A stretch of 64,000 bases of DNA, from assembly GCA_963754875.1 (NCBI GenBank), contig CAVWHO010000022.1, positions 152,985-216,984 of the forward strand, in the 5' to 3' direction. The position numbers are program-made. Shown here in pieces: positions 21,001 to 36,000 of the stretch. Position 1 is the stretch's first letter; each line of letters starts with the position of its first letter. The stretch is from Nitrospirota bacterium (GTDB taxonomy: Bacteria; Nitrospirota; UBA9217).

Positions 21001-24000
21001 GCACGCACCAGGGTAATCGGTGTGATTGGAGTTTAAAAGATTGCCCTGCGATTTCGCATAATTGCCGCCTCTTCCTCCACGAGTCTGACGCTCGGTATGC
21101 CGATCTCATGAACCCGACACGTAACATCATGGATGTGGCGGCACACCCGCTTTTTCGTGGCACTGCAAATGCAACAATACGCACTGTCATGAAAAACATC
21201 CTTCTCTGCTCCTCCAATCCCATCCTGGTCAAGAGCCTCTACAGTATGCTGAGAGACGAAGGGCATGACGTAGAAACCGTGGAACACCCGGCAGTGGCCG
21301 TCCATAAGGTGATGTTCGGCTTGTTTGATCTTGCCATCCTTGACTCAGAACCTTTTGGTCTTTCCACGGAGGATGCAGTGCAAATCATAAAGACCGTGGA
21401 GCCCAACCTGCCGATAGTATATGTCGGGGGCGGCATGAACGATGGCCCGTCCTTGGCCGTCGACGCGCCGGTTGACCTCGAAGAGCTCAAACGAACTATC
21501 CATAGTATCACGGTATGATCGAACGACGCAAGGCGTGAGACTCTGACGCTTCGTCGGCATGTCTATTCATTTTCGGAGGGGAGATGCTATGAAACCAAAG
21601 GAAGTTATGCTTAAGACATTCGAGGGGGGAAAGTCCGACAGACTCCCGGTGACCCTGTTCGGCGCGGGAATGTGGAGCATCAAAGGCTGGGGCACGTCGT
21701 TTGAGGCGCTTTCAAGGGACGCGGACAAGATGACTTCCATGCTCGTTGACATGAGCGCCAAGCTCCAGTGCGACATCGTGTATCCCGGGTCGGGGTACAA
21801 TAACTTCCATGCCTCGGCACTCGGCGGCAAGATAAAATTTCGCGAAGTCGGCGCGCCGGACCTGGAGAACCATTTCGTGTCCACGGAAGAGGACCTTGCA
21901 AAACTCAACCTCGCGAACCTCGATGCCGATGAGACCATCAATACCGTGAAAAAGGCGTTGCGCCAAACGAAGGCAAAGATCGGTGACACCTATGTGGTGA
22001 CCATGACCGCCTGGGGGCCCTTCACCCTCGGCGCGAGGCTTGTGGGAGAAGAGACCATGATGAAGGCCACGTTCAAGAAACCAGCCTTTGTCGAGAAGGT
22101 CGTAGACTTCGCTACGAATCTCCTGATCCATCTCTACGAACCGATTGTCGCAGACAAAACGCTCGAGGTGATCAGCCTCGCGGACCCCACGGCATCGGGC
22201 GACCTCATTTCCAGAAAGCAATTCGAAAAGTTCGCCGTACCCTATCTGAAAAAATTTACCGATTGGGCAAAATCCAAAGGCGTGCATACGCTGGTCCACA
22301 TCTGCGGAAATACGACCGACCGGCTGGACCTGTTCCCGCTGACCGGGGCCTCCTGCATCAGCCTGGACCACAAGACGGACATGGCAAAGGCGAAGGAAAC
22401 GCTCCACGGCAAGATGTGCTTCGGCGGGAACGTGGACCCCGTGAAGATCATGCTGAACGGCACGGTGCAGGACGTGGAGAATGCCTGCAAGGACGTGATC
22501 AAGACTGCGGGCACGGACGGGGGATTCGTGCTCATGCCGGGCTGCGACATCCCGCCGACCGTTCCCTACGACAACATCAAGAAGTTCATCCAGGTGGCGC
22601 ACGAGTGGAAAATGTAAACGACAGCATCGGCAACCACGGGTCGAGGTCGCCTGTGGTTAATTGCTTTTTCATCACTTCACAAAAAAGGAGGTGAAACTGC
22701 TCAATTCTCAAAAAAGGAGGTCGATGAATGGGTATTTTGGACGAGTTGAAGAAACTGTTTTCCGGAGCACAGAGTGCATCCGGGCATAAGGAGGAAGTAA
22801 AAATGGCTGACAAGAAAATGTCGTTGGAAGAAGTAAATGAGTACATGAAGAAGCAGTGCGGCTTCGTACCGCGCATGTTCCAGATCATCAACACCGTGAC
22901 GCCGGAGCCGGGCAGGACGTTCGCCGATTTTTATGCGAGCATCTTCGCTGACGGAGCCCTTTCCCGCAAGATAAAAGAGCTGATGTTCATGTCCGGCGGT
23001 GTGGCCTACTGCTCGCCGCGGTGCATCATCCACGTGATCCCGGCCATCAATGCCGGCGCGACCACGGGCGAGATCTTCGAAGCAGCTTCGGTCGGCATGA
23101 TCCTCGGGGGCTTTGTGCCCGGCGGACCCGGCATCCCCTATGCCTTCGAGTATGCCCTCAAGTGCCTCGACATCGAAGCGAAGTTCCGCAAGGGCGAGAA
23201 GTGGGAGTACCTGCCTCAGCCCAAGTTCGATCATGGTGTATTTTAAGTGTACTTCGACGGGGGAGCGTTTCGAAGGCTCCCCCGTTTTTCGCACTCATAC
23301 GATTATCATAAGAAAAGCCGCTCTCTATAGATGTTGAATATTACTTCCGAATAAAAAGGGGATGGGGATGTTTCGATTTAAAAAAGACCAACAGGTATTT
23401 ACTCTCGGCAACATGAAAGTGGGCGGCCAGCCCGGAGAAAATCCGCCGCTCCTGATCGCGTCTATGTTTCACAATAAGGACCGGATCGTCACGGACCGCA
23501 AAGGCAATTTCGACCGTAAGAAGGCCACGGAGATGATCAGGACCCAGGAAGCGCTGTCCGCCTCCACGGGGATTCCGGCCATGGTCGCCATGGTAGCGAA
23601 CTCGGCGGAAGAGGCCAAGATCTATATCGATTTTTACCGCGAAACGACAACAATGCCCTTCGGCATCGACATGTGGGTCGCAGAAAAACGGGCTGAGGCA
23701 ACGGAGTATGTGGCCAAGCTCGGACTCCAGGACAAGTTCCTGTACAACAGCATCACGCCCTGGGACAAGGACATCAAGGGACAGGTCCGGAAGCTGAAGG
23801 ACCTCGGCATCAAGCATGTCGTGGTGCAGGCCTTCGACGACCAGGACCAGTCGCCTGCGGGCCGTCTTAAGTCGCTCGAGAGCATCCTTTCCCAGGGGGC
23901 CGACGGCTTCGAGACCGTCATCGTTGACACATCGGTCATGAACCTGCCTGCAACGTCGTTCTCCCTCGTCGCGAACAGGTTGATCAAGGAGAAACTCGGC

Positions 24001-33000: not shown

Positions 33001-36000
33001 GGCAAACGGCCGGCAATGTTCGTCCAGAGCTCGGGCATCGGAAACATGATCAACGCCCTGCTTTCGCTCACGCAGTTCTACGAACTTCCGCTCGCATTGT
33101 TCGTCAGCCGCAGAGGAATTTACCAGGAAAAAATCGAGGCCCAGTTCCCGATGGGACAGCGCCTTCCGGGGATACTTTCAGGCGCTGGAATTTCCTATTC
33201 AGAAATAAACAGCAGCCAAGATTTCGCTACCGTAGGCAACGAACTGGGGGAAGTTTTTAAGACCAATAAGATTCATGCGTTCCTCCTGAGCCCGGCAGTG
33301 TGGGTTGGGTCAGAATGCAAAGGAACGAGAACACAGTGTAAAGTGCAGGAAAGAGCTGCGGAAGGAACAATGCGTAAGACCGGTATGCCGGAGTTCACGC
33401 GCTACGATGTCATCAGGATCATCGCACCGTACCTCGAAGGCAAGGCCGTTGTGAGCAATCTCGGCTGGCCGTCAAAAGAGCTCTATGCGCTCAAGCACCT
33501 ACCTTCAAACTTCTACATGCTTGGGAGCATGGGCATGGCCACGCCTGTCGGACTCGGCATTGCACTGACGTCGCCAAAGGACATTGTCGTGATCGACGGC
33601 GACGGCAGCCTGCTCATGAATCCCGGCACTCTTGCCACAGCGGCCTATGCCAATCCGAAGAATCTGACGATTATCGCGATCGACAACGGCGCCTACGGGT
33701 CAACGGGAAACCAGCCTACTTTCGCGGCCTCCTGCGTTGATCTGGAACAGGTGGCTGGGGGATTTGGGTTTAGGCACACGTTGAAGGTGTCAACGGAAAA
33801 GGAATTAACAGAGGTAATGAAGCAGCAGCGGCAGGGTCCCGCCTTTATTCACGTTCTCGCCATTCCGGGAAACAAAGACGTGCCGAACATTCCGGTCCCT
33901 CACCTTGAGATTAAAAAGCAGGTGCAGAAGTTTTTGAAAAGGTAGCGTGGTTCCGCCCGACTATGCTAAGGGAGTAAAAACAAAATATTGAGAAGAAAAA
34001 AAATACCTATATACGCATTTTGGGGTGTTAGACCGCCAGCAAATGTTATTCCATGCACCATCGCGAGGAGGAGTATTTACAACTTCCCGGTCTTCTGATA
34101 TTCCTGAACATAAAGCTTGATCGCCCTCAAGATCATCCAGTCCACCGTAACACTATTGTCCTTTGCTATCTGGACCATTGCGTCGATAAGGTCCTTATCG
34201 ATCGTGGGCATGCCGGACGCCTGCGATTGTGGTTGAGCAGCCTCTTCGCTCATACCGAGCTCTGCTCCGGGAGTCCGCTTGAGATATTCCCGCCGAAGAA
34301 TTTTCTTGAGGCCCTTGACATCTCCGCTCTCGATTGCCTTTCGCACATCCTCAGGCACTTCCGGCGACATCTGCTCCGCAGCCTTTTGCTCGGAGGACAC
34401 AGTCTGCTGCTGCTCCTCCTGTGCAGGAGACGGCGGGGTTGTTTGGCCCCCCATGGGCATCATCCCCGTCATCCCCATCATCATGGATGCCAGGTTCTTC
34501 GCATATTCATTGTCCGGCATTTCCCGCTTCAGAAACTCATCAAGCTTTCCTTCTGCCATGGCCGCGGCCATGCTGTCTGCCGTCAGTCCGCCCTGATCCT
34601 CAGATTGTTCCGAAGACCTCTTTCTCCCGAATGGCGTGTTCGGCGGCGTTGGAAGCGGTTTTTCTTTTTTCATGGTCATTCCTGCTTTCTGTGGGCTGTT
34701 TTAAATTTATACGCATACTCGTAGGAAATCGGTGCTGCCACGCGCGCCTCCTCTTTCACCTTCCCGGGAATACAATATCTCACGGTCTTGACGTTGTCAA
34801 GACCTGTCGTAGCGAACATTCGTACAGCATCGGAGCCGCCGCATACCCCTTTTTTACCATACCCCTTTTTTACCATTGAAGTTACAAAAGAGAAGGGGTA
34901 CATTATGGGACGCTTTTTCATTCCTGCACGACACAGGACACCCAGTACAAAGGAGAACAGAATGACTCAAGCCAAACAGGGAGATACCGTCAACGTACAT
35001 TATACCGGCAAATTGGGTGATGGGACCGTCTTCGACACGTCCCGGAGCCGGCACCCTCTCCAATTCACAATCGGCAAGGGACAGGTTATCGTCGGGTTCG
35101 AGCAGGCCGTCGGCGGCATGAACACCGGGGAATCCAAGACCGTAATTATCCCCATGGACAATGCATACGGCCCGCGCCGCGAGGAAATGATCATTACCAT
35201 GGAACGGAGCAAGCTTCCTGCTGACCTGGTCCCGAAAGTCGGCCAGCGCCTCGAGCTTACCCAGATGGACGACCAGAACATCCTGGTCACGGTCACGGCT
35301 GTCACGGATTCCATGTTGACCCTTGATGCCAACCACCCTCTTTCCGGAAAAGACCTTGCCTTCGACATCGAACTGGTCGGGATCGTATAACCTGTCTGTG
35401 TAATGTCATACTTGAGTATGCATTCCAAAGTCCAATGAATGCAGGATCAACGGTCGTGTTTTCCGGAGATTTCATTTCTCACGCAGACCGGTCGGATGTG
35501 CACTTTTTCTGATCCCCTCGTAGCATGACTGGTTGTCTTGAAAAAGAGTTTCTCTTTCCCCTGGATGGTGGTACTATTATTTCAGACAGGGTGGCACGTC
35601 GCCCTGCCGATCCGGGCTAGTGAAACAATGAAGCTCTTTTTGAAACACCGGGCGATCCGCATAATTCTACCGTATGTTCTCTTTGGAAGCCTGTGGATCG
35701 CTGCATCGGACCGAGTGCTCGAGATTTTTGCTCCCGATATCCATGCCCTGACCATCCTGCAGACCTATAAAGGATGGTTTTTTGTTGCAGCAAGCTCCGC
35801 CCTCCTGTTACTCGTCTTGCGCCGTGAATTTCAGATCCGCAACCGCGCGGAAGCGGCACTCAGCGAATCCGAAGAAAAATACCGTCTTCTGATGCATAAT
35901 GCCAACGACGGCATCGTCCTGGCCGACGCCGAGAGCGGTCTCATCCTGAATGTGAACCGGAAAATCGAGGAGCTCGCGAACGTCCCCGAGGACCAGCTTG

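Follow-up and report, generated by a model that had tools for sequence, protein, structure and literature searches.

This locus raises the question of whether coenzyme M (CoM), a cofactor typical of methane-producing archaea, is put to an undescribed use in bacteria, as the operon reported here suggests without proving. The window analysed, 64,000 nucleotides from an uncultured sulfate-reducing bacterium of the Nitrospirota, carries a block of 13 genes, all on the + strand, which the genome-wide survey's note had placed at 21108..33945 and read as a CoM-making, methyl-transferring and disulfide-respiring module in a host devoid of methyl-CoM reductase (MCR). The ORF check of the window located all 13 genes there, and McrA was not found in the host genome, which encodes AcsB, DsrA, Fhs and AcsE-like genes. 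The products of the 13 genes are, in order, a receiver-like protein, a first URO-D-family methyltransferase (URO-D1), a CMD/AhpD-like protein, an MtrH-like protein, a second URO-D-family enzyme (URO-D2), a corrinoid protein, a QueG/reductive-dehalogenase-like Fe-S protein, a RACo activase, a DUF6951 protein, a cytochrome b-like membrane protein, an Fe-S protein with two CCG domains, cysteate synthase and fused ComDE. Since 68 of 69 Nitrospirota-type loci share this order (the single departure being an over-long ORF call) and three of the gene junctions are overlaps, of 4, 11 and 25 nt, the arrangement is not due to chance. Because of the protein lengths of relatives and the position of a sigma-54 promoter motif (21158..21172), the true starts of four genes probably lie further in, at 21589 (URO-D1), 29086 (DUF6951), 29542 (cytochrome b) and, for the receiver-like gene, at 21189 instead of the earlier 21108, which is upstream of the promoter. 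Two genes beyond this span also belong to the system: a cobW/COG0523 gene and one encoding a signal-less protein of the SsuA/NMT1 fold. We found no description of this operon in the literature.

One part of the CoM proposal that stands is the supply of a precursor. Cysteate synthase (31589..32845, + strand; O-phosphoserine and sulfite to cysteate) scored 484.7 bits against NCBIfam TIGR03844 (cut-off 324.9) and fell apart from a ThrC-like outgroup in a tree, while the fused sulfopyruvate decarboxylase ComDE (32821..33945, + strand; sulfopyruvate to sulfoacetaldehyde) exceeded the cut-offs of TIGR03845 (184.2 bits; 147.95) and, by a narrow margin, TIGR03846 (221.8 bits; 221.5). Its score as a phosphonopyruvate decarboxylase (TIGR03297, 221.3 bits) was below the cut-off of 312.5. 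By family membership, this is a genuine sulfoacetaldehyde-making pair. As in the type 2 (phosphoserine) pathway of Methanosarcina acetivorans (cs MA3297, comDE MA3298, MMP16/ComF MA3299; PMC11844431), the two genes are adjacent, and their products share 46-48% (cysteate synthase) and 43-47% (ComDE) identity with those of the methanogen-type loci L073, L075 and L077-L082. Unlike Methanosarcina, the host is a sulfate-reducing bacterium in which neither MCR nor MMP16 or another COG1900 protein was found. We surveyed 251 Nitrospirota genomes (49 cysteate-synthase carriers, 202 non-carriers) and 38 of Hydrothermarchaeota (14 carriers). COG1900, the family of the known last enzyme of CoM synthesis, was not found in 49/49 Nitrospirota carriers, in agreement with a gap that the note itself had pointed out, nor in 13 of the 14 archaeal ones, so that CoM is a presumed end product. 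In MCR-bearing archaea MMP16 accompanies the sulfoacetaldehyde genes; an M. acetivorans mutant deleted for it grows without CoM at high sulfide, and the Methanosarcina CoM importer is of the Ssu type (PMC11844431). An SsuA-type ABC importer adjoins the module in two loci where synthesis genes do not (L126, L175), and occurs together with synthesis genes in some Nitrospirota loci.

In place of MMP16, cysteate-synthase carriers have the signal-less SsuA/NMT1-fold protein (11965..12909, - strand; Pfam NMT1_2). A new finding of this analysis is that it tracks cysteate synthase in both phyla, accompanying it in 49/49 Nitrospirota carriers and in the same 14 of 38 Hydrothermarchaeota. The protein scored 92 bits against SsuA_fam, below the cut-off of 163.5; a hydrophobic N-terminus is present in 0/52 family members, and H13, C74, H79, E81, H121, D122 and H216 are invariant in 53/53. 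It is a candidate for the missing sulfur-insertion enzyme of the last step or, alternatively, for a cytoplasmic sensor of a sulfonate or sulfite ligand.

The methyl-transfer genes, all on the + strand, surround one corrinoid (B12) carrier protein (25484..26176), identified by family profiles, with no second member of this family found in the genome. URO-D2 (24452..25480) exceeded the subfamily cut-offs TIGR01463 and NF004889 and matched MtaA 4ay7 at E 1.5e-49, whereas URO-D1 (21589..22617) fell below every MtaA, MtbA and CmuA cut-off. Both carry HICG...PGC, which in URO-D2 aligns with the motifs of 4ay7, and the H-x-CG and PGC pair is kept in 39/39 and 17/17 full-length relatives; His-Cys-Cys marks S/Se-methyltransferases, O-demethylases being different (PMC10418091). 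The description of the two as zinc-motif enzymes like MtaA and MtbA thus holds for the type of zinc site and not for orthology: both are below the equivalog cut-offs, at about 24-33% identity, and form their own clades away from the Methanosarcinales enzymes. URO-D2 may be the thiol end of a methyl relay, and URO-D1 may act on a second thiol or thioether. The MtrH/MtgA-family corrinoid:pterin methyltransferase (23362..24315) passed NF002142 (329 bits; cut-off 287), with MtrH and a methylcorrinoid:THF methyltransferase among its PDB matches, and remained below the mtrH and MtgA equivalogs. It would be the methyl-THF end of the relay; in one protein, P0121, it is fused to URO-D2. The CMD/AhpD-fold protein (22728..23246; Pfam CMD) has an SPRCxxH motif (Cys99, His102) invariant in an alignment of 36 and a structural model of pLDDT 86, with CMD/AhpD structure matches of E 4e-3 at best, and may handle a thiol or persulfide. 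A QueG/reductive-dehalogenase-like double 4Fe-4S protein (26173..26832; below family cut-offs), a RACo/AcsV-type ATP-dependent corrinoid reactivase (26921..28903; Pfam Fer2, RACo linker, middle and C-terminal domains) and the DUF6951 protein (29086..29403; Pfam), with three conserved Cys motifs, complete this part. A presumed di-haem membrane cytochrome b of the NarI/DsrM/HdrE type follows (29542..30228; DsrM model E 4e-19, below cut-off), its four His kept in 85, 85, 85 and 84 of 85 homologues. Its HdrD-like partner (30218..31420) has, in domain and profile searches, two 4Fe-4S motifs and, as the note had held, two CCG domains, both of them complete here. The pair resembles HdrDE, DsrMK and other cytochrome b-CCG complexes in these features, yet it is below all named cut-offs, the CCG protein falling short of every Hdr, DsrK and TfrB model; the closest solved relative of the CCG protein is 9ojn, an 'iron-sulfur-binding reductase', HdrB matching at no better than E 4e-4. 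A true DsrMK is encoded elsewhere in the genome (contig C19).

The operon also has a conserved sigma-54 promoter, a further new finding. The -24/-12 motif TGGCAC-N5-ATGC (21158..21172, + strand) could arise by chance in the window alone, as 23 of 100 shuffles also match, but of 41 related loci, some of them near-identical, 32 have it 350 to 450 nt upstream of where URO-D1 starts and 37 within 480 nt, against a background of 0.038 per kb. A PAS-GAF-PAS sensor histidine kinase (13048..15072, + strand; Pfam) and a sigma-54-dependent response regulator (15147..16478, + strand; Pfam), with homologues next to the operon in 8 and 11 metagenome loci, are its probable regulator and activator, respectively. 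The receiver-like protein (21189..21518, + strand) is a single domain with a sub-threshold Response_reg match (E 2e-4). The CobW/COG0523 metal-chaperone GTPase (19787..20656, - strand; Pfam cobW, CobW_C) may load zinc or cobalt; its gene recurs near the module in archaeal and Firmicutes-type loci as well as in those of Nitrospirota.

The distribution of these genes supports a tight tie between the sulfoacetaldehyde-making pair and the methyltransferase module in two phyla, with counts drawn from related genomes and not from independent samples. The MtrH-like gene is present in 48 of the 49 Nitrospirota carriers and, frameshift-ridden, in the last; URO-D2 orthologues occur in 11 of 14 Hydrothermarchaeota carriers, often unlinked, and eight examined archaeal loci have cs-comDE without an adjoining methyltransferase gene. 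A history shared with Hydrothermarchaeota, as earlier proposed, finds support in the ComDE tree (0.99) and none in that of cysteate synthase, which places the Nitrospirota proteins outside those of the archaea, at a weakly supported node (0.65). FolD is inserted in six loci, and MetF lies upstream in L099, L103 and five metagenome loci. Also new is that the corrinoid-activase-MtrH-MtaA-like core (51-72% identity) is found in Desulfotomaculum-type clusters, following a separate MtaB-MtaC-RamA-MtaA set in L121/L132 and adjoining pyrrolysine/MtmB-type genes in L130/L124. We therefore read the core as a relay that moves methyl groups from a thioether to folate: where a pair of thiol methyltransferases links one corrinoid system to another, a free methyl-thioether is implied as the intermediate. 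No CoM genes were found in the neighbourhoods of these Firmicutes-type methanol and methylamine loci. By gene order, L121/L132 fit the methanol- and cobalt-induced operon of Desulfofundulus (Desulfotomaculum) kuznetsovii and D. salinus, published as Desku_0050-60 (mtaA, mtaB, mtaC, CobW-type, Fe-S protein, URO-D, second corrinoid protein, ferredoxin-type activase, MtrH-like, second mtaA), for which the passages describing it propose no thiol intermediate (PMC5770442, PMC11206085). The proteins encoded by the second half of L121/L132 share 53-69% identity with the corrinoid, activase, MtrH-like and URO-D2 proteins of the window; compared with the Desulfofundulus operon, the window lacks MtaB/MtaC and adds URO-D1, CMD, HdrDE-like and sulfonate genes. 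The soluble CoM methyltransferases MtaA, MtbA and MtsA of Methanosarcinales likewise combine a URO-D fold and the His-Cys-Cys zinc motif with a cognate corrinoid protein and activase, but are coupled to MCR where the window's enzymes are coupled to an MtrH-like one.

We tentatively favour a reading in which the cell makes a thiol resembling CoM and employs it to carry methyl groups into the Wood-Ljungdahl pathway. In its favour count the enzymes above their cut-offs, the co-occurrence in two phyla, the His-Cys-Cys motif, the SsuA-type importers, the P0121 fusion, the layout of the Desulfotomaculum-type clusters, FolD and MetF at some loci, the AcsB, DsrA, Fhs and AcsE-like genes of the host and the growth of the MMP16 deletion mutant. 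The block would be a sigma-54-controlled system supplying its own small sulfonate thiol. Cysteate synthase and ComDE, with a general aminotransferase assumed to act between them, would yield sulfoacetaldehyde, to be converted to CoM without a COG1900 enzyme, either through the signal-less SsuA-fold and/or CMD proteins or abiotically with the abundant sulfide of a sulfate reducer. Three methyltransferases would draw on a single corrinoid protein, which the RACo activase would maintain in its active state. The methyl partner of URO-D2 would be CoM and that of the MtrH-like enzyme tetrahydrofolate, while URO-D1 would act on a second thiol or thioether such as methanethiol, dimethyl sulfide or another methyl-sulfur compound of this kind. 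The net flux would most likely be oxidative, from methyl-sulfur to methyl-THF and the Wood-Ljungdahl pathway, with sulfate as the acceptor. Via the quinone pool, the thiol/disulfide state of the carrier may be set by the CMD protein together with the cytochrome b/CCG pair, which more likely pull an uphill thioether-to-folate step or rescue oxidised thiol than form a respiratory end point. The methyltransferase and HdrDE module persists without cysteate synthase or the signal-less protein in three genomes (81-97% complete) of a single genus, and ComD was not found in the two of them that were searched; this, and the lack of a URO-D orthologous to MtaA/MtbA, speak against the reading, as do the carriers without COG1900, the Firmicutes-type loci with no CoM genes nearby, the archaeal cs-comDE loci with no methyltransferase gene next to them and the host genome, in which no MtaB, MtmB or MttB was found as an entry point for methyl groups.

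It is rather unlikely, though the leading alternative, that the carrier is sulfide/methanethiol, cysteine or another thiol, with sulfoacetaldehyde turned into a different sulfonate or thiol and the sulfonate genes kept for some connected but distinct role, for example to buffer thiols or to take up excess sulfite. The carriers without COG1900, those three genomes and the Firmicutes-type loci are in keeping with this, as are a related Mlp enzyme that methylates selenide and, slowly, sulfide (PMC10418091) and the second role of CoM as an antioxidant in M. acetivorans (PMC12713407). The near-perfect tie of sulfonate and methyltransferase genes in two phyla, however, calls for a shared metabolite, importers stand in for synthesis in L126 and L175, and the neighbour clusters listed for 80 loci show no recurrent aldehyde reductase, dehydrogenase or transaminase, a check of neighbouring genes and not of the genome for Xsc, IsfD, SarD, Tpa or IslA families. 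The survey's further proposal is very unlikely; in it the HdrDE-like pair would reduce CoM disulfide, or a mixed disulfide, as the acceptor of a respiratory chain. The conserved haem ligands, the complete CCG domains and a second HdrED-like pair in 11 loci would suit it; the sub-threshold scores, the non-Hdr solved relative, the missing pair between DUF6951 and cysteate synthase in L018, L141 and L178 and, with menaquinone assumed as the donor, an uphill transfer (menaquinol about -74 mV, CoM disulfide about -140 to -280 mV) leave it poorly supported, and no MCR or other disulfide-forming step was found.

That the relay runs reductively is unlikely. Methyl groups would then pass from Wood-Ljungdahl methyl-THF to sulfide, selenide or a thiol (methanethiol or dimethyl sulfide formation, detoxification), a transfer that is downhill by about -30 kJ/mol, or methyl-selenium/sulfur would be salvaged as proposed for type 1 mlp clusters. 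Those clusters, from non-methanogens, share at least two MtaA-like His-Cys-Cys enzymes, a corrinoid protein and an activase with the window (PMC10418091), and no MtaB, MtmB or MttB was found in the host genome; yet they by definition exclude folate methylases, the MtrH-like gene being present here, clusters for the uptake of methanol and methylamine house the close relatives of the core, and a soluble relay would presumably conserve no energy in that direction. The main text of the mlp study mentions no cysteate, comDE, Nitrospira or Hydrothermarchaeota, and three of its supplements no cysteate, Nitrospir, Thermodesulfovibrio, kuznetsovii or Sulfobium (PMC10418091). The mec cassette of anaerobic dichloromethane degraders, compared by description and not by sequence, is built alike: besides a sensor and a regulator it holds methyltransferases of the MtaA/CmuA and MtrH families, a corrinoid protein and an activase (10.1101/2021.08.30.458270). 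A methyl halide or O-demethylase system of the Mec, Cmu or Mto kind, passing methyl groups to THF without any thiol, is nonetheless highly unlikely, given His-Cys-Cys in both URO-D enzymes, sulfonate, CMD and HdrDE-like genes that it leaves unexplained (the mec description has neither sulfonate synthesis nor HdrDE-like genes) and a report of close Mec homologues (over 35%) only in the named degraders among public genomes (10.1101/2021.08.30.458270). Least probable is a cobalamin-dependent methionine synthase in split form, with methyl groups going from methyl-THF by way of the corrinoid protein to homocysteine. The host lacks MetH, PF02574 and PF01717; PF02574 is missing in 47/49 carriers (the two matches being short stand-alone proteins) and PF01717 in 49/49, while 127 of 202 non-carriers have one or the other. 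But 75 of 251 genomes have neither the operon marker nor PF02574/PF01717, so another methionine synthase exists in these lineages, and host contig C13 encodes a 347-aa protein with MesB-like H-x-C...C spacing (MesB: PMC7857596), a motif-only likeness with no Pfam, NCBIfam or PDB match. Sulfonate and HdrDE-like genes would again be unexplained, and the three genomes with the module and no cysteate synthase do have PF02574 proteins. The GC3 of the methyltransferase genes (0.76-0.83) is like that of AcsB (0.81) and Fhs (0.79), against a median of 0.66 in a rough gene set, and counts weakly for the CoM-carrier reading.

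The 13 genes that the genome-wide survey's note had joined into one operon (21108-33945, all on the + strand) were found in the order claimed, and family models agree with the naming of the corrinoid protein, the activase (RACo), the CMD protein, the QueG-like Fe-S protein and the DUF6951 protein among their products. The operon is real and conserved and, judged from sequence, an undescribed variant of corrinoid methyl transfer whose link to coenzyme M (CoM) is probable. All of its proteins are members of known families; as a set they were not found in print in open-access PMC and bioRxiv, a scope outside which most subscription papers lie. 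Around relatives of cysteate synthase the best 80 of 391 loci were taken; 69 of them were classed as Nitrospirota-type, and 68 of these keep the gene order, many being shortened by contig ends; another set of loci comprised the best 80 of 468, metagenome loci being shown from a length of at least 7 kb. An alignment-based model of the CMD protein gave generic CMD/AhpD matches only (a single-sequence model had a pLDDT of 40), and an Atlas search with the DUF6951 protein returned its own family alone.

A sigma-54 motif at 21158, kept at equal distance in 32 of 41 related loci, and the sensor kinase and sigma-54 activator encoded upstream make 21189 the most likely start of the operon's first gene. 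Scans for sigma-70 promoters and terminators gave results near chance level. Just 3' of comDE, here and in 36 related loci, lies a gene for a 200-aa protein without a Pfam family (34077-34679, - strand), whose Atlas neighbours are solely Nitrospirota hypothetical proteins. Further on (35538-37737, + strand), the gene of a PAS protein overlaps, in another frame, that of a GAF/HD-GYP protein; the two may represent a single phosphodiesterase gene with a frameshift.

The host genome is 90% complete and encodes DsrA above cut-off as well as AcsB, also above cut-off, within a Wood-Ljungdahl cluster. By tetranucleotide composition the operon ranks in the most unusual 5% of this genome's 13-kb tiles. 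We nonetheless rejected contamination and recent transfer, given a codon use that follows the AcsB/Fhs/Dsr genes (r 0.57) and the presence of the block in 11 of the 13 other genomes of the genus. McrA (PF02745) was not found in the genome, in agreement with the survey's statement that methyl-CoM reductase (MCR) is absent, nor were MMP16, any COG1900, MetH, MetE-core and the substrate-specific methyltransferases MttB, MtaB and MtmB.

Cysteate synthase is genuine, as had been claimed (TIGR03844, 484.7 bits against an equivalog cut-off of 324.9; ThrC models below cut-off), and its gene overlaps comDE by 25 nt. The fused ComDE also stands, with 184.2 against 147.95 for the alpha model TIGR03845 and, marginally, 221.8 against 221.5 for the beta model TIGR03846; it falls below the phosphonopyruvate decarboxylase cut-off (TIGR03297, 221.3 against 312.5). 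Enzymes for making sulfoacetaldehyde are thus present in the operon. Cysteate synthase and ComDE are shared with the type 2 CoM pathway, whose COG1900 CoM synthase (MMP16/ComF) is missing here: the absence of this last-step enzyme, already remarked in the survey, was borne out, as no PF01837 occurs in the 90% complete genome and its TIGR03287 matches are to the ferredoxin domain only. Among 251 Nitrospirota genomes at least 80% complete, the present one included, COG1900 occurs in eight, none of them a carrier of cysteate synthase, and accordingly in none of the 49 carriers. That gap need not be fatal to CoM as product, since an M. acetivorans MMP16 deletion is described as growing without CoM at 0.4 mM sulfide, its growth defect being masked at 1.5 mM (PMC11844431). 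On balance we favour CoM as the product of the pathway, with some reserve.

Of the same 251 genomes, 49 carry cysteate synthase and 53 the MtrH-like gene, with 48 carrying the two together; the sole cysteate synthase carrier missed has a frameshift-ridden copy of the MtrH-like gene. Two of the five MtrH-only genomes have a contig end inside the operon; the other three, all of one genus, possess the methyltransferase and HdrDE genes and truly lack cysteate synthase. The strongest evidence against CoM comes from these three genomes and from Firmicutes-type loci, which keep the corrinoid protein, activase, MtrH-like protein and URO-D2 (hereafter the core) without a visible CoM supply. The surroundings of the module in these three yielded no alternative supply genes, radical SAM and SAM-methyltransferase genes standing there instead; in these loci (L095-L097) the module is followed by genes for a radical SAM protein like MSMEG_0568, a SAM methyltransferase and a B12-type radical SAM protein.

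In Hydrothermarchaeota (38 genomes; the phylum of locus L072), where bins are small and related genomes are not independent samples, 14 have cysteate synthase, 17 URO-D2 orthologues (at least 48% identity) and 11 both. COG1900 was seen in six of the 38, one of them a carrier, every frame being of about 510-530 aa, a size typical of the CBS-bearing homocysteine enzyme. ComDE of Nitrospirota groups with that of Hydrothermarchaeota (support 0.99), in line with the gene transfer proposed earlier, but in the cysteate synthase tree Nitrospirota lie apart from the archaeal sequences, a weakly supported placement (0.65); on these trees, built with FastTree only, sharing of operon genes between the two phyla is plausible. 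The phylum is described as lacking MCR (PMC6946796). Most Hydrothermarchaeota loci (L071, L076, L105-L114) have a small gene for a PNPOx-like flavin-binding protein that is convergent with a trio of cysteate synthase, comDE and the signal-less protein discussed below.

As to what the METHYLTRANSFERASES do, the zinc motifs attributed to the two URO-D enzymes are real, the His-Cys-Cys ligands being kept in both, but their MtaA/MtbA-like label does not extend to equivalog status: scores against NF040654 (cut-off 400) and NF041608 (cut-off 600) are 257 and 192 for URO-D2 and 148 and 160 for URO-D1. These ligands are the criterion for S/Se-methyltransferases of the family (PMC10418091), and both enzymes thus have S-type zinc sites. 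In a tree from which 24 near-duplicate Methanosarcinales sequences had been dropped (222 to 198), URO-D2 sits with sequences whose names point to Desulfotomaculum, Anaerolineae, Desulfobacterales and Dehalococcoidales, apart from the Methanosarcinales enzymes, and URO-D1 forms another, separate clade. At subfamily level the MtrH-like protein is above the NF002142 cut-off; it falls short of both the MtrH equivalog (TIGR01114, 162 against 271) and the MtgA equivalog. A natural MtrH-URO-D2 fusion of 662 aa in a relative (P0121) argues that the two enzymes work as a pair. Elsewhere in the genome (G000:C14:92343-93362, L279) lies a third gene for a His-Cys-Cys URO-D protein, which stands alone, with no corrinoid gene nearby; its product belongs to the URO-D1 clade.

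Metagenome loci place the core beside other methyl donors' systems. In L121 and L132 it lies 3' of a full second set, MtaB-MtaC-CobW-RamA-MtaA-like (MtaB 701 bits, cut-off 720), and in L130 and L124 it adjoins pyrrolysine and MtmB-type genes. Two corrinoid systems joined by two thiol-type methyltransferases suggest a free methyl-thioether, which the core would convert to methyl-tetrahydrofolate; FolD and MetF neighbours support the folate link. In gene order L121/L132 match the methanol operon of Desulfofundulus as listed in PMC11206085, and the proteins of that operon are stated to rise on methanol plus cobalt (PMC5770442). The core relay appears to have a cultured counterpart in Desulfofundulus, which makes the idea testable at the bench. 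The accessory set (URO-D1, CMD, DUF6951, HdrD-like) occurs without cysteate synthase and comDE nearby in L126 and L175, where an SsuA-type ABC importer adjoins.

Named systems fit only in part. Assignment to the type 1 mlp cluster is excluded by the MtrH/MtgA-family gene inside the operon, that cluster being defined without a folate methylase within 20 kb (PMC10418091). The mec cassette can be likened to the operon by its description in the preprint (10.1101/2021.08.30.458270). From the Mtr complex and methanogenesis the operon differs in that MCR was not found in this genome and the MtrH-like protein is below the mtrH equivalog. With HdrDE its membrane pair shares a di-haem cytochrome b, whose four His are kept in 84-85 of 85 homologues, and two complete CCG domains; the survey's likeness stands to that extent, but the best solved relative of the CCG protein is not an Hdr. 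The disulfide-respiring role proposed for the pair is poorly supported. Methyl transfer from thioether to folate costs roughly 30 kJ/mol, and reduction of CoM disulfide by menaquinol is also uphill, for which reason the cytochrome b/CCG pair more plausibly serves to oxidise or rescue the thiol than to act as a terminal reductase. One corrinoid protein would serve a three-way methyl relay, which would run in the oxidative direction.

The genome's want of MetH and MetE suggested another use of the operon, as a methionine synthase. It is a reading real enough to test: 47 of the 49 carriers lack PF02574 and all 49 lack PF01717. It is lowered by 75 of the 251 Nitrospirota that, at the thresholds used, lack both families and cysteate synthase alike, and whose methionine synthase falls outside these models, and by a MesB-like candidate in the genome itself (G000:C13:235407-236450, L278; 347 aa, MesB-like H-x-C...C spacing), for which no family or structure match was found.

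The last step to CoM may involve a 314-aa SsuA/NMT1-fold protein without signal peptide (11965-12909, - strand), encoded in divergent orientation to the sensor kinase. It occurs in 53 of 251 Nitrospirota, all 49 carriers included, was not found in the three methyltransferase-only genomes, and is present in exactly the 14 Hydrothermarchaeota carriers (directly 3' of comDE in 12, divergent from cysteate synthase in one, on another contig in one); it therefore tracks the sulfonate genes, not the methyltransferases. A role as ABC importer substrate-binding protein was rejected: a hydrophobic N-terminus is missing from all 52 family members, no permease adjoins the gene in the window or in Hydrothermarchaeota loci, and true exported paralogues are only 24-31% identical. 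All 53 of 53 members keep His13, Cys74, His79, Glu81, His121, Asp122 and His216, and Cys257 is invariant outside Halobacteriota. Two readings remain by analogy of fold, a putative sulfur-insertion enzyme, with THI5 and MqnA/D as precedents, or a cytoplasmic ligand sensor, as is NasS. The family also occurs in 36 of 201 Halobacteriota genomes (at least 37% identity), Methanocella and Methanoperedens among the names; several of 20 loci viewed have ThiS, ThiF or putative ThrC-like, CysN-like or IscS/IscU-like neighbours, and none has cysteate synthase-comDE alongside. Nor was the protein seen in seven methanogen-type cysteate synthase-comDE loci. Its occurrence in methanogens, probably together with MMP16, counts against a simple one-for-one replacement of that enzyme. 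On contig C8 of the host (G000:C8:124833-128572), ThiF/MoeB-like and ThiS/MoaD-like genes lie amid amino-acid biosynthesis genes, the ThiF-like protein being 65% identical to one adjoining the signal-less protein in methanogen-type loci; a thiocarboxylate sulfur relay is possible.

We consider it improbable, if worth stating, that sulfate-reducing Nitrospirota and MCR-less Hydrothermarchaeota make true CoM with the periplasmic-binding-fold enzyme, alone or with CMD, replacing MMP16 at the last step, and that a soluble methyl-CoM:tetrahydrofolate methyltransferase then oxidises methyl sulfides, the same relay passing on methyl from methanol in Desulfofundulus-type bacteria. Bacterial CoM is described as known only from alkene metabolism, where it is made by a different pathway (PMC11844431). 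A methanogen-type CoM supply linked with methyl transfer in roughly one in five of the sampled Nitrospirota (49 of 251) would extend the reach of CoM to sulfate reducers in soil, groundwater and sediment. It would also give named genes for the methane-free, anaerobic turnover of methyl-sulfur compounds and would indicate a CoM synthase besides MMP16, with possible relevance to the unexplained backup route of methanogens.

Small OsmC-like and DsrE-like proteins are repeated neighbours of the module in bacterial and archaeal loci alike (L175, L248, L253 and 10 metagenome loci); an OsmC-like gene was not found in the present genome. A second, distant HdrED-like pair, about 29% identical to the first, is inserted, on either strand, in 11 loci, L005, L020, L021, L027, L056 and L060 among them.
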